A stretch of 64,000 bases of DNA from an uncultured bacterium (GTDB lineage Bacteria > Patescibacteriota > Minisyncoccia > Phycocordibacterales > UBA6065). Location: contig CAWJEP010000001.1 of NCBI GenBank assembly GCA_963841935.1, positions 141,302-205,301 of the forward strand. The letters run 5' to 3'. Every line of letters begins with the position of its first letter. Position 1 is the stretch's first letter. Positions 13,844-17,341 of this stretch are shown one piece after another. The position numbers and the translations under genes are program-made. Below the pieces are notes generated by a model that worked only from the letters and a program-made list of their open reading frames with translations, was not told the DNA's origin and searched no databases.

Positions 13844-15900
13844 ATGGCGGATATTCCAAAAGACATCTCCTCTCGCGCCGAAAAACTGAGAAAGCTCATA
13901 GCTTTCCACTCGCGTCTCTATCACACTCTCGACAAACCTGAAATAGCGGATAGCGCGTACGACGCTTTGGTCGAAGAGCTCATAGCCATCGAGAAGAAAT
14001 ATCCCTCGCTTCAAACTTCCGATTCGCCGACCCAGAGGGTCGGCGGCGTTCCGCTCAAGGAATTTCAAAAAGTCGTTCATCAAGTTCCGCAGTGGTCTTT
14101 CAACGACGCTTTTAGCGAAGAGGACATCGCGGCCTTCGACGAACGCGTGAAAAAATTTCTCTTCGCCGCGCGCGGCAAGGCAATAACTCCTTCATACGAC
14201 TGCGAACTCAAAATCGACGGATTGAAAGTCGTTCTCGAATACGAGAAAGGCGTCTTGGTCCGCGCGGCGACGCGCGGCGACGGAGAGGTTGGCGAGGACG
14301 TCACGGCAAACGTCAGAACCATCAAGACCGTTCCTCTCCGTCTTTCTCGCGACGTGTCCGTTATCGTCGAAGGCGAGATTTGGATGAGCAAAAAAAATCT
14401 CGAGAGTCTCAATAAAAAGCGCGAGAAAGACGGAGAGCCGCTTTTTGCGAACCCGAGAAATGCCGCGGCCGGTTCCATTCGCCAACGACCGAAAATGCGG
14501 CGAGCCGAAAATGTGAACTCGACCCGAAAATCGCGGCAAGCCGAAAATTAGATAATTTCGCCTACGATTTGGCGAAAACGTCGGAGAAATTTCCGCCGAC
14601 TCAAAACGAAGAACTCGAATATCTAAAAGAGCTCGGTTTTACCGTAAATGAGCATCATGCCCTAGTTCAAAATACTGCTCAAATTATGGATTATTGGCGG
14701 CTTTGGCAGAAAAAGCGCGATAGCGTGGATTATCTTCTCGACGGCATTGTCATAAAAGTGAACGAAAAAGAATCCGAGGACGCTCTCGGCTACACCGGCA
14801 AAGCCCCTCGCTGGGCTATAGCTTTCAAATTTCCAGCGGAGCAAGTGACAACCGTCGTTAAAGATATTGTTTTTCAAGTCGGCCGCACCGGCGTCATCAC
14901 GCCCGTCGCCGTTTTTTCTCCGGTCAAAGTCGCGGGTTCTACTGTCGCGCGCGCCACGCTTCACAATGAAGACGAAATCAAACGTCTCGACGTGAGAATA
15001 GGCGACACGGTTATCATTCAGAAAGCCGGCGATGTCATTCCGGACATCGTTTCCGTGGTCAAAGAGCTTCGCACGGGAAAAGAAAAAGTTTTTTCATTCC
15101 CGACGCATGTGCCGGAGTGTGGAGGTGATGGAAAAATAGAAAGGATTCCCGGACAAGCGGCGCACAGATGCGTCGATAAAAATTCTTTTACGCTTCTTCG
15201 GAGGAAACTTCGCTACGCCACATCGAAACCGGCGCTCAACATCGACGGCATGGGTCCAAAAATAATAGATGCGTTCCTCGAGCACGGTTTGATTTCGTCT
15301 CTCCCCGATATTTTTGAATTGGAAAAAGACGAAATCCTGGAACTGCCGAGGTTTGCCGAACTTTCGGCGGAAAATATCGTCAAAGCCGTTGAAGTCGCGA
15401 GAAAAACGACATTGCCGAGACTTATCACGGCGCTTTCCATTGACCACGTCGGGGAAGAGACGGCGTATTTGCTCGCCGGACATTTCAAAACGATGGAGAA
15501 GATTCGCTCCGCGACAAAAGAAGAATTGGAAAAAATAAACGGCGTTGGCCCTGTCGTCGCGGAGTCGCTTTCGAAATGGTTCGCGGGCAAGGGGAACGGA
15601 AAAATGTTGGACAGACTTCTTTCGCACCTCAAAATCGAAAAGGCCGCGCCCGCCGTCTCGGCGGGCGCGGCCAGACTCTCTGGACTTACTTTCGTCTTGA
15701 CCGGCACACTCTCATCTCTCGAAAGAAACGAAGCCGAATCCAAAATCCGCTCCCTTGGCGGCAAAGTTTCTTCATCCGTCTCCAAGAAAACTTCGTATGT
15801 CGTCGCCGGAGCGGAACCCGGCTCAAAACTCGCAAAAGCCAATGAATTAGGCGTAAAAACCCTTACGGAACAAGACTTTTTAGCTCTATTGACAAAATAG
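13844..15900 (+). pseudogene. ligA: NAD-dependent DNA ligase LigA, reading frame broken at 14486-14517
   Basis: N-terminal part (13844-14485) has the KxDG adenylation motif [10 protein letters not shown] and ends ...[23 protein letters not shown]... continues in the +2 frame from 14518 through OB, Zn-finger, HhH and BRCT regions to 15900. The 32 intervening nt are an imperfect copy of the following 33 nt. Confidence 0.75.
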
Positions 15901-15945
15901 CCATATTTGGTATACAATACAAGCCGAGATAGAACATTGAAAAAA
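15758..15945. repeat. Direct repeat copy 1 (ligA 3' end + consensus promoter + 5'UTR start)
   Basis: About 188 bp, 97% identical to 17156-17341. Confidence 0.85.
15889..15918 (+). promoter_or_regulatory. Consensus sigma70 promoter copy 1 (TTGACA-N18-TACAAT)
   Basis: Near-perfect -35/-10 hexamers; same 60-bp module recurs at 17286 and 50698. Confidence 0.6.
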
Positions 15946-16045
15946 CGAAGGAATCGCCGCAGCTTTGAGCGACTATTTTTTGGTCTTTCAAAGCTGTAGC
16001 GAAGAGTACAGCATAACTAAAACTGTCAAGACGATTAGTAAAATT

Positions 16046-16783
16046 ATGAGCACAACCACTGCTCCTGTTGTCACCGACGGTGAACTCGCGACGCTTGCTT
16101 CACGGCAAGTTGAGCTTTTCACGCGTTTTAAGAAAGGGGTTTACGCAAATCCCTCCGAAGTGCTGGACGGTATCCAGCTTCTCATCGAAGGCAAACAGCC
16201 CGAGGTCATCCCGACGGTCGTTTCTTCGGACACGAGTTCGGTCATCTCCGACTGGCAGGACTTCTACAAGAAGTTCTTCGGTCTCAATATCGATTTGTCG
16301 GGAGTCAAAATCCCCGAACACGCCCTCGGTTTCGATCGGTTGATTGTGGTCCCGCAAGGTATCACGCTCAATCAAGTTTGGAAGGTGTGTGCAAGGCAGT
16401 TCAACTGCTGGAAATACACCGACTCTGACCTCGATAGTGCTGTTCCCACGAACAACCGAGACCCAAAGAGTGGCGCCTACGCCATCTGGGTCCGCGATGT
16501 TGTCGAAGCTGACAAGGAGATGAAGAATCTCTCGGCGGACGACCTCAAGGAAAGGACAATCAAGGGGGTCACTCTCCTCGAACGTCTACTTCTTGAGCTC
16601 AAGTATTTCTCGGAGACGGGAAAACACTTGGACATTAGCAACTGGACCCTCTGTTCGGGTTCCCGCCATTCGGGCGGCTGCGTGCCCTGTGTGCGCTGGC
16701 TCGACGGCTGGCTCAAGGTCGACTGGTACTATGTCGGCGGTCGGTACGACGACCTTCGTTCGCGTGTAGCAGTTACGCTTTAA
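16046..16783 (+). CDS. DGR target protein 1 (variable region VR1 at C-terminus; CLec/FGE-like tail)
   Basis: Paralog of the 17468 and 50810 genes (shared N-terminal helix pattern). C-terminal 100 nt pairs with the Asn-rich repeat at 17026-17127 with adenine-biased mismatches. Start could be the TTG at 15965. Confidence 0.55.
   Translation: MSTTTAPVVTDGELATLASRQVELFTRFKKGVYANPSEVLDGIQLLIEGKQPEVIPTVVSSDTSSVISDWQDFYKKFFGLNIDLSGVKIPEHALGFDRLIVVPQGITLNQVWKVCARQFNCWKYTDSDLDSAVPTNNRDPKSGAYAIWVRDVVEADKEMKNLSADDLKERTIKGVTLLERLLLELKYFSETGKHLDISNWTLCSGSRHSGGCVPCVRWLDGWLKVDWYYVGGRYDDLRSRVAVTL
16668..16769 (+). other. Candidate variable region VR1
   Basis: Aligned to 17026-17127: 25 mismatches, 21 where the partner has A. 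Confidence 0.55.
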
Positions 16784-16808
16784 GCTTTCTGCTTTTACAC
16801 TTGGTTTC

Positions 16809-16850
16809 GCGGCCTGCAAGTAAAAACTTGCAGGCCGCTTTTGTTTTTCA
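16809..16850 (+). terminator. Rho-independent terminator after target 1
   Basis: GCGGCCTGCAAG-loop-CTTGCAGGCCGC followed by TTTTGTTTTT. Confidence 0.75.
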
Positions 16851-17025
16851 TAAAATTATTCCGGCTATTAAATTGATCCGCCGATGAGGCGGATAACGAT
16901 TTGCCATAAAAAAGAAACTGCCTGCTTCATCTACACAACGCCTCGTTCGGGGTACAAACGCAGAAAATTTTGACGAAAGATTTTCGGTGACACGGAAGGA
17001 TGAAAGCAGTACACGAGGTTCGCGC

Positions 17026-17127
17026 AATTCTGACGGCAACGTGCCGAACGTGAACTGGAACGACGACAAGCTCAAGGTCAACTGGAACAATGTCGACAAT
17101 CGGAACGGCAACCTTCGTTCGCGTGTA
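17026..17127 (+). other. Candidate template repeat TR1 (AAC/Asn-rich, not in a credible gene)
   Basis: Eight AAC codons in 100 nt; shares ATTCTGACGGCAAC start and CTTCGTTCGCGTGTAG end with VR1. Confidence 0.5.
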
Positions 17128-17155
17128 GAAGTCTCGCGAAGATCCGCTATTTCGG

Positions 17156-17341
17156 CGGCAAAGTTTCATCGTCGGTTTCCAAGAAAACCTCGTATGTCGT
17201 CGCCGGAGCGGAACCCGGCTCAAAACTCGCAAAAGCCAATGAATTAGGCGTAAAAACCCTTACGGAACAAGACTTTTTAGCTCTATTGACAAAATAGCCA
17301 TATTTGGTATATAATACAAGCCGAGATAGAACATTGAAATT
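17156..17341. repeat. Direct repeat copy 2 (ligA 3' end pseudo-copy + promoter)
   Basis: Encodes the same last 43 aa of LigA plus stop, but with no gene body; it is followed by the promoter module. Confidence 0.85.
17286..17315 (+). promoter_or_regulatory. Consensus sigma70 promoter copy 2 (TTGACA-N18-TATAAT, TGg extended -10)
   Basis: Identical module to copy 1; drives target 2. Confidence 0.6.

Follow-up and report, generated by a model that had tools for sequence, protein, structure and literature searches.

A ligA-tail direct repeat as the probable scar of two diversity-generating retroelements stacked in tandem in a Patescibacteria genome

Diversity-generating retroelements (DGRs) with more than one target gene are common, and the growth of their target arrays has so far mostly been inferred from catalogues. 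For arrays of another kind, the orphan modules in T6SS (type VI secretion system) clusters of Vibrio cholerae and in Rhs loci, homology-facilitated illegitimate recombination (HFIR) has been proposed as the mechanism (PMC5361080). HFIR in Acinetobacter, S. pneumoniae and P. stutzeri combines a homologous anchor with a joint at a short GC-rich microhomology, and these joints usually carry a deletion or an insertion (via PMC5361080, refs 41, 42 and 47; PMC3240628). The present work concerns a 64-kb stretch of contig CAWJEP010000001.1, referred to below as the window, in which a Patescibacteria DGR island lies inside the last codons of ligA, the gene of the NAD-dependent DNA ligase, and directly upstream of gatC. 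The island holds two target genes, T1 and T2, each with its own variable region (VR) and template repeat (TR), and a single pair of genes for the accessory protein Avd and the reverse transcriptase (RT). The end of ligA is found a second time between the two target units, and this repeat is probably the scar of an illegitimate recombination that stacked two allelic DGRs, one of T1 type and one of T2 type, in tandem.

A repeat search of the window returned the ligA tail as a direct repeat in two copies, A and B, at 15742-15942 and 17139-17339, which are 201 nt long, 95% identical, ungapped and spaced by 1397 nt; blastn gave E=6e-88. The repeat that a preliminary description of this DNA had pointed out is thus real, and, as had been stated there, no ligA body precedes copy B, the sequence immediately 5' of it being TR1. 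However, copy B holds 47 ligA codons and the stop codon (17154-17297) where only the last 43 codons had been counted, and the two synonymous changes given for the ligA part fall short of those present. All 47 residues and the stop encoded by copy B are the same as in ligA, and the five differences all fall on third positions and are all synonymous (window 15771/74/77/80/92 versus 17168/71/74/77/89; P~0.001 for all being synonymous). A further difference lies in the -10 hexamer, which is TACAAT in copy A and TATAAT in copy B. The differences between the copies are clustered, with six in the initial 41 nt and one in the other 147 nt (Fisher p=5e-4), and a block of 129 nt carries none at all (15793-15921 = 17190-17318). 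The initial ~12 nt of the computed repeat (ATCCGCT...) are, in copy B, sequence from downstream of TR1 and not from ligA, as the TR flank of an orthologous locus (L083, introduced below) indicates, and unambiguous ligA-derived sequence begins at about 17152-17154, with GGC GGC at 17154. Copy B reads as the relic of a flanking conserved gene beside a displaced or retained module. That all five differences are synonymous shows it to have once been part of a functional ligA on another chromosome, where it was under purifying selection. Units 1 and 2 share no more than the flanking 190 nt and ~20 nt at the start of their TRs.

To map the transition from unit 1 into copy B, the two copies were compared with each other and with the TR flank of L083, which places the crossover at 17149-17153. 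The sequences read GAAGTCTCGCGAAAATCCGCTATTTTTGCGGATTTT in the L083 TR flank, GAAGTCTCGCGAAGATCCGCTATTTCGGCGGCAAAG in copy B and CCAAAATCCGCTCCCTTGGCGGCAAAG in ligA. In L083 the TR is followed by GAAGTCTCGCGAAAATCCGCTATTTTTGCGGATTTTT, an 8-bp hairpin with a U-tract (-18.4 kcal/mol) between the TR and the stop codon of avd, and the equivalent hairpin after TR2 has -17.3 kcal/mol. In the window, TR1 is followed by GAAGTCTCGCGAAGATCCGCTATTT and then directly by CGGCGGCAAAG..., that is, by the TR1 flank as far as the hairpin loop and from there by ligA from codon -47 onward. The terminator hairpin of TR1 is destroyed, its 3' arm and U-tract being gone, and the remainder folds no better than shuffled sequence (-7.4 kcal/mol, z=0.4). 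Short stretches, namely ATCCGCT (7 nt), T and GCGG, are common to the TR1 terminator region, as represented by the L083 ortholog, and to ligA codons -50 to -45. The joint is thus an illegitimate one at patchy microhomology and was not formed by a crossover in shared homology.

Contigs of relatives, obtained by a search with the C-terminal part of ligA, present the same site in empty, T1-type and T2-type states. The site is empty in L082, L087, L088 and L091/92, whose ligA products are 81-93% identical at the amino acid level; here ligA ends in ...EQEFLKML* and gatC starts 7 nt later. A single DGR of T1 type occupies the site in L083-86 and in L090. The order in L083-86 is ligA (...KLLTK*), promoter, target, hairpin, spacer, TR, terminator, avd on the minus strand, RT and gatC, and L090 has the same promoter, a T1-type gene and a hairpin in the 5' untranslated region (5'UTR) that is homologous to the T1 leader of the window. 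A single DGR of T2 type is found in L173 in the order ligA, promoter, T2, TR2, avd on the minus strand, RT and gatC, with a target 99% identical to T2. The island boundaries are identical in all island-bearing loci. Both DGR types open on a common promoter module that overlaps the stop codon of ligA, and the new end which the island gives to ligA, (A)LLTK*, includes the -35 hexamer. At the other boundary, the final 12 nt of the RT2 open reading frame (ORF) at 19968-19979 (AAAATGCTATAG, KML*) are the old ligA tail, a relic that L173 and L083 have as well. The insertion therefore took place inside the ligA tail and left both ligA and RT with chimeric ends. Because it interrupts the ancestral ligA tail, and because the old tail survives at the end of RT, the island-bearing arrangement is the derived state.

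Compared with these relatives, the window is a composite. Its segment 16839-17158, comprising spacer and TR1, is 82% identical to L083 (~92% in the spacer part), but its avd and RT reach no more than 25% and 52% identity with their L083 counterparts, against 77% for gatC and 89% for gatA. Between 17323 and ~20030 (2.67 kb), on the other hand, no more than five positions outside VR2 separate the window from L173, a core identity of ~99.8%, whereas the genes that flank this T2-type core are 71-76% identical between the two genomes. The identity to L173 falls ~45 nt into gatC, and the background affinity is alike on both flanks of the locus, at ~81-84% to L082 and 71-76% to L173. The two target units themselves have nothing in common beyond the repeat: T1 and T2 show no detectable similarity (BLASTP E=5.5), and the alignment score of spacer 1 with spacer 2 lies within the range of shuffled sequences. 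A core identity of ~99.8% against 71-76% between the genomes shows that well-separated lineages came to share the T2-type DGR very recently. VR2 differs between the window and L173 at 16 substitution sites, of which 14 are TR2 adenines, and TR2 is identical in the two; since the differences in this near-identical core lie mainly at TR adenines, the T2-type DGR is active and has been diversifying VR2 since it was shared. A blastn alignment to L083 starting at 19584 had also prompted the idea of a mosaic RT with a resident 3' end and a foreign 5' part; binned identities were uniformly ~50-60%, and the idea was rejected.

The history that we consider likely starts from two chromosomes, one with a T1-type and one with a T2-type DGR. 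The loop of the TR1 terminator hairpin of the T1-type chromosome would have been joined to codon -47 of the ligA of the other chromosome, while a conserved flank, either gatC or the ligA body, would have allowed the other end of the exchange to be resolved through homologous recombination of the ordinary kind. The pattern is probably one of HFIR of incoming DNA. The product would be ligA-P-T1-TR1 followed by ligA'(47 codons)-P-T2-TR2-avd2-RT2-gatC, where P is the promoter module and ligA' the relic. Cassette 1 would have kept its promoter, target and TR, but neither its Avd and RT nor the terminator of its TR. Later homogenisation would have affected the 3' ~150 nt of the repeats, unless these were already identical through closely related partners. 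Two polarities are conceivable. Either a resident of T1 type received ligA'(47 codons)-P-T2-TR2-avd2-RT2 with gatC as the anchor and lost avd1-RT1 and half of the TR1 terminator, or a resident of T2 type received ligA-P-T1-TR1 with the ligA body as the anchor, so that the resident ligA tail was pushed downstream. The former is slightly favoured, because the T2 core is near-identical to L173 and because the conserved TR1 spacer argues against a long orphanhood. The partner was probably a close relative of the window lineage, or else a later homologous exchange, with the promoter module at one end and the opening ~45 nt of gatC at the other, refreshed the T2 core.

Several observations weigh against this history. 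Copy B is ~90% identical to the ligA tail of L173, against 99.8% for the adjoining core; L173 can therefore not have been the direct partner, and a single exchange does not explain everything. The perfect block of 129 nt between copies A and B likewise calls for a further assumption, be it gene conversion or a partner of the same species. Concerted evolution of the promoter modules is plausible on sequence grounds, because the three modules of the window differ at one base in 33 nt and that of L173 at three. Sliding-window identities to L082, L083, L087, L088, L090, L091 and L173 gave no clear tract boundary on either flank. Moreover, the T1 cassette and the joint between TR1 and the ligA relic were found in no independent assembly, and the stacking rests on one contig: exact-protein look-ups (RT, gatA, ligA fragment, called form P0004, T1) returned a 1.4-kb Logan contig with RT and avd, or nothing. 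The same contig has consensus problems nearby, namely the 36-nt duplication in ligA and the additional nucleotide in VR2. Finally, DNA uptake by transformation is assumed. Competence of the organism is hinted at circumstantially by adjacent type IV pilus genes. A cluster resembling type IV pilus and type II secretion systems lies directly upstream of ligA at ~6800-13800 (aligned to L082 1-9995 and L173 77-7050) and comprises PilB/PilT ATPases, PilC, prepilins and a prepilin peptidase.

An in-situ origin was the reading of the preliminary description, in which unequal crossover between promoter modules copied a segment of ligA tail, promoter, target and TR in tandem and the copies then diverged. 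Much of what it described stands: the 1.4-kb unit has the stated content (promoter, 5'UTR hairpin, target 1 with VR1, hairpin 16809-16838 and TR1) and is flanked head-to-tail by the direct repeats, the repeat is supported as a recombination footprint that includes the shared promoter module, and the module is a real portable unit, since one more exact copy of 33 nt, the third, is found in front of a further target-like gene in the window. The three modules would offer the shared homology for such a crossover, tandem target arrays are known in DGRs (PMC5758913), and the target array did expand, from one cassette to two relative to the related genomes, L083 and L173 each carrying one. A tandem duplication is nevertheless very improbable. 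T1 and T2, their 5'UTRs and their TR spacers are without detectable similarity although the flanking repeat is 96-100% identical, and a pseudogenic ligA fragment cannot remain identical while the intervening sequence diverges beyond recognition. Each cassette type occurs alone at the same site in other genomes, the joint between TR1 and the ligA relic lies outside shared homology, and the five differences are all synonymous. The comparison with related genomes proposed in that description did bring up one-cassette loci, but their two types are mutually unrelated and so are not duplicates of one cassette. Its other suggestion, the T1 unit as an inserted piece, is equally possible under our reading, with the block ligA'-T2-TR2-avd-RT slightly likelier as the incomer in view of its near-identity to L173. 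An assembly artefact, in which a chimeric read or mis-join concatenated co-occurring strains of T1 and T2 type, is a more serious competitor, although we still regard it as unlikely. Both parental allele types exist in public assemblies, the frame-breaking oddities (ligA 14492-14548; G at 18011) are typical of a noisy long-read consensus, no independent contig contains T1 or the joint, and the RT2/avd2 part occurs alone in a separate short-read contig. A mis-join, however, requires long shared sequence, whereas the joint has a microhomology of 7+1+4 nt, the signature of biological illegitimate recombination; in addition, avd1-RT1 is missing cleanly, the background affinity does not differ between the flanks, and an unrelated public genome, L073, has a similar stacked arrangement.

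The two remaining explanations involve enzymes of integration or of the DGR itself. If an integrase or transposase had inserted the unit in an integron-like manner, the 190-nt repeats would be att-like sites or target-site duplications, and it would be understandable that one module heads cassette-like units at three genomic positions and that precise island boundaries are common to several genomes. Yet no integrase or transposase ORF is present in the island or its neighbours, the latter being housekeeping genes in L082, L083 and L173. A target-site duplication would be far shorter than the repeat, which is made of 47 codons of a housekeeping gene, and at the third module nothing corresponds to the left end of copy B, homology there beginning only at CTATTGACA. 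We therefore give site-specific insertion as little credit as tandem duplication. The least probable of all is an RT-mediated origin, in which the DGR RT copied a read-through ligA-T2 transcript, switched template onto TR1 RNA and the cDNA was integrated. DGR RTs make short, TR-length cDNAs, and their synthesis is expected to start at the TR 3' end. An RT is present, the joint does abut the 3' end of TR1, and microhomology is typical of template switching. However, the joint lies in the loop of a hairpin and not at an RNA 3' end, the repeat holds a promoter (-35 and -10) and sequence upstream of the transcription start, and a cDNA of >2.8 kb would have to be integrated without any retro-signature.

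If the two DGRs were stacked by illegitimate recombination as proposed, cassette 1 should be an orphan. Neither RT1 nor avd1 was found in the 64-kb window, and RT2 is unlikely to serve TR1, because the two TRs have unrelated flanks. A frozen state of T1 is therefore probable; the cassette retains a near-consensus promoter (11/12) and an intact T1 ORF. VR1 and TR1 have 33 mismatches, 28 at TR adenines and five at other bases, and these five are compatible with a frozen T1 without proving it. Their use as proof of decay of cassette 1 was considered and rejected as weak, since the active VR2 of L173 also has two changes at bases other than adenine. The 190-nt direct repeats could now mediate pop-out, amplification or conversion of cassette 1, and its deletion through them would regenerate a single-cassette locus like that of L173.

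The features of the locus are collected in Table 1. The ligA gene was identified by its adenylation, OB, HhH and BRCT domains, and the Pfam domains are divided over its two ORFs. The split is caused by an imperfect 36-nt tandem duplication with small indels at 14492-14548 (CGACCGAAAATGCGGCGAGCCGAAAATGTGAA / CGACCCGAAAATCGCGGCAAGCCGAAAATTAGAT); the homologs are all intact, with ~672 aa, and the duplication is either a long-read consensus artefact or the mark of a pseudogenised essential gene. Promoters 1 and 2 are the best sigma-70 matches of the region. The sizeable ORFs of the island are T1, T2, avd and RT only, with no recombinase ORF among them. T1 is 51% identical in amino acids to the L083 target. 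VR1 ends 5 nt before the T1 stop codon, and VR2 ends 6 nt before the stop of an in-frame T2, whose version in L173 is the 218-aa protein P0241. In the window the T2 frame is broken by the extra G at 18011 in VR2, beside a variable adenine site; L173 lacks it, and an error in the consensus, made at a heterogeneous VR site, is its probable source. Between VR2 and TR2, every core substitution falls on a TR adenine. The match of avd2 to NF033474 (E=2.3e-16) is below the curated cut-off of NCBIfam. The ~150-nt TR1 spacer, with its counterpart at 4290-4450 of L083, is a candidate for a structured cis-acting RNA element of the type-1 DGR. The 5' leaders of target genes (15954-16002 and 17337-17406 in the window, ~4895-4945 in L090 and ~4684-4733 in L137) form long stable hairpins with a similar base, GC(C/U)ACAGC...GCUGUGGC (z=-3.2, -5.1, -3.4), and have no Rfam match; an Rfam search of 15500-19100 gave a sub-threshold chance hit only. 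Downstream of gatA, a tRNA cluster (22417-22780) is rearranged between relatives, with segments that match L083, L087 and L173 inverted and in other order.

Table 1. Coordinates of the features of the DGR locus and of the third promoter module in the window.
Feature	Position	Strand	Remarks
ligA (NAD-dependent DNA ligase)	13844-15900	+	last 5 codons (ALLTK*) island-supplied; ORFs 13844-14551 and 14569-15900
Repeat copy A	15755-15942	+	true ligA tail (47 codons + stop), promoter, first ~17 nt 3' of -10
DGR island	15883-19967	+	inserted between ...TTTCTA and AAAATGCTATAG of ancestral ligA tail; blastn breakpoints 15882 and 19966 versus L082/L087/L088
Promoter 1	15889-15918	+	TTGACA-18-TACAAT, 11/12; -35 hexamer within last ligA codons
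T1 5'UTR long hairpin	15954-16002	+	z=-3.2; conserved in L090
Target gene 1 (T1)	16046-16783	+	245 aa; large Patescibacteria DGR-target family; VR1 16658-16778
GC-rich hairpin/terminator after VR1	16809-16838	+	
Spacer upstream of TR1	16855-17016	+	~92% identical to L083, neighbouring genes ~77%
TR1	17017-17137	+	cassette 1 template repeat, orphaned: cognate avd/RT not present
Illegitimate junction	17142-17159	+	patchy microhomology ATCCGCT / T / GCGG, loop of former TR1 terminator hairpin
Repeat copy B	17152-17339	+	relic ligA tail (47 codons + stop, without gene body) and promoter module
Promoter 2	17286-17315	+	TTGACA-18-TATAAT, 12/12
T2 5'UTR long hairpin	17337-17406	+	z=-5.1; similar leader in L137/L139
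Target gene 2 (T2)	17468-18136	+	VR2 18013-18130; frame shifted by extra G at 18011
Hairpin/terminator after VR2	18189-18220	+	
TR2	18478-18595	+	own terminator hairpin 18608-18629
avd2 (DGR accessory protein, Avd)	18602-18988	-	PF22296 bAvd on identical L001 protein; NF033474 E=2.3e-16
RT2 (DGR reverse transcriptase)	18996-19979	+	RVT_1, PF00078 1.8e-22; LGNLTSQ and YADD motifs
gatC + gatA	19987-21694	+	right flank of island
Third exact 33-nt promoter module copy	50696-50728	+	precedes third target-like gene, 50810-51418

The third module (CTATTGACAAAATAGCCATATTTGGTATATAAT, plus ATAGAACATTGAAA) lies downstream of an unannotated ORF of 279 aa (49832-50671). The target-like ORF that follows it, T3, encodes 202 aa with a C-terminal sequence resembling a variable region, and a terminator hairpin is located at ~51476-51500. 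No TR matching T3 was found in the 64 kb, and none of T1, T2 and T3 had a Pfam or NCBIfam hit.

To place the locus among other DGRs, RT-based scans of genome and metagenome contigs were evaluated, which yielded 160 Patescibacteria DGR loci with RT identities of 62-78%, no close relative among them. The host is a member of the Patescibacteria, and all 160 loci with related RTs come from that group. The layout with avd on the minus and RT on the plus strand occurs in 75 of 81 loci (80 RT-related loci and L001), and the element itself is an ordinary Patescibacteria DGR, not a new kind of system. A second stacked case was found in L073 (5882-10963; MHSF01000023.1, Candidatus Taylorbacteria), where a promoter module, target A, avd and an RT cut at about residue 165 are followed by a copy of the module, target B, avd and a full RT. 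DGR stacking thus recurs in Patescibacteria. Long direct repeats without A bias were also seen in three further Patescibacteria loci: L063 has two avd/RT units ~7 kb apart, L020 a repeat of 592 nt and L060 one of 312 nt. Such cases suggest that DGR parts are commonly duplicated or stacked in this group. The neighbourhood recurs as well. DGRs adjoin ligA and/or gatCA in the distant Patescibacteria loci L137 (2522-7310), L139 (2-4653) and L041 (1839-6342), whose RTs are ~65% identical to RT2, with 45-62% identity for ligA and 53-55% for gatA. In L137, ligA lies upstream and the contig ends after RT; L139 has the ligA end and gatA; and in L041, gatC and gatA follow downstream, with no ligA seen upstream. 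The ligA/gatCA neighbourhood therefore appears to be a recurrent home of DGRs.

Beyond the single event, a wider function is conceivable, which we put forward tentatively and hold to be rather doubtful. The ligA-tail/promoter module and the conserved start of gatC might serve as homology arms that make the ligA-gatC site a recombinase-free exchange point for cassettes, with the modules seeding targets and the orphans forming a reservoir. If this were true, species that are ~25% divergent would exchange, stack and lose whole DGRs and single target cassettes, new target genes at other genomic positions would be seeded by copies of the promoter module, of which the one at 50.7 kb would be an example, and orphan target/TR cassettes would be a store of frozen binding specificities that could be re-armed or popped out via the repeats. 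Irrespective of this, the locus and its empty, T1-only and T2-only alleles record at base-pair resolution what would be the steps of array growth: insertion in the ligA tail, exchange of a whole DGR between genomes of 71-76% identity, stacking at microhomology, loss of an RT/Avd pair and homogenisation of promoter repeats. The window and L173 form a natural experiment, in that their 2.7-kb elements differ almost solely at TR-adenine positions of VR2, and comparing them gives direct evidence that a DGR is active in an uncultivated lineage. Two warnings follow for annotation: a TR beside a target does not mean that the cassette works, and short fragments of housekeeping genes may mark recombination joints.

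With the multi-target DGRs of the candidate phyla radiation (CPR)/Patescibacteria, the locus shares the LGxxxSQ motif of RT, Avd, C-terminal VRs with A-to-N mismatches, hairpins after the VRs and the orientation of avd on the minus and RT on the plus strand. Unlike in those systems, the two targets have separate TRs, with a cognate Avd/RT for one TR only; the second unit is prefixed by the relic of a housekeeping gene that would record its arrival; and the island sits within the last ligA codons, with the RT ORF finishing on the old ligA tail. The arrangement resembles the orphan immunity arrays of T6SS clusters and the orphan tips of Rhs and contact-dependent inhibition (CDI) loci, where, in the proposed model of sequential displacement, a flank-anchored incomer displaces part of the resident and an orphan is left beside a relic 3' fragment. 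However, the cargo here consists of DGR target/template cassettes instead of toxin-immunity pairs, and a single stacking step is seen. With HFIR of transformable bacteria, finally, the locus has in common a joint at a short microhomology.

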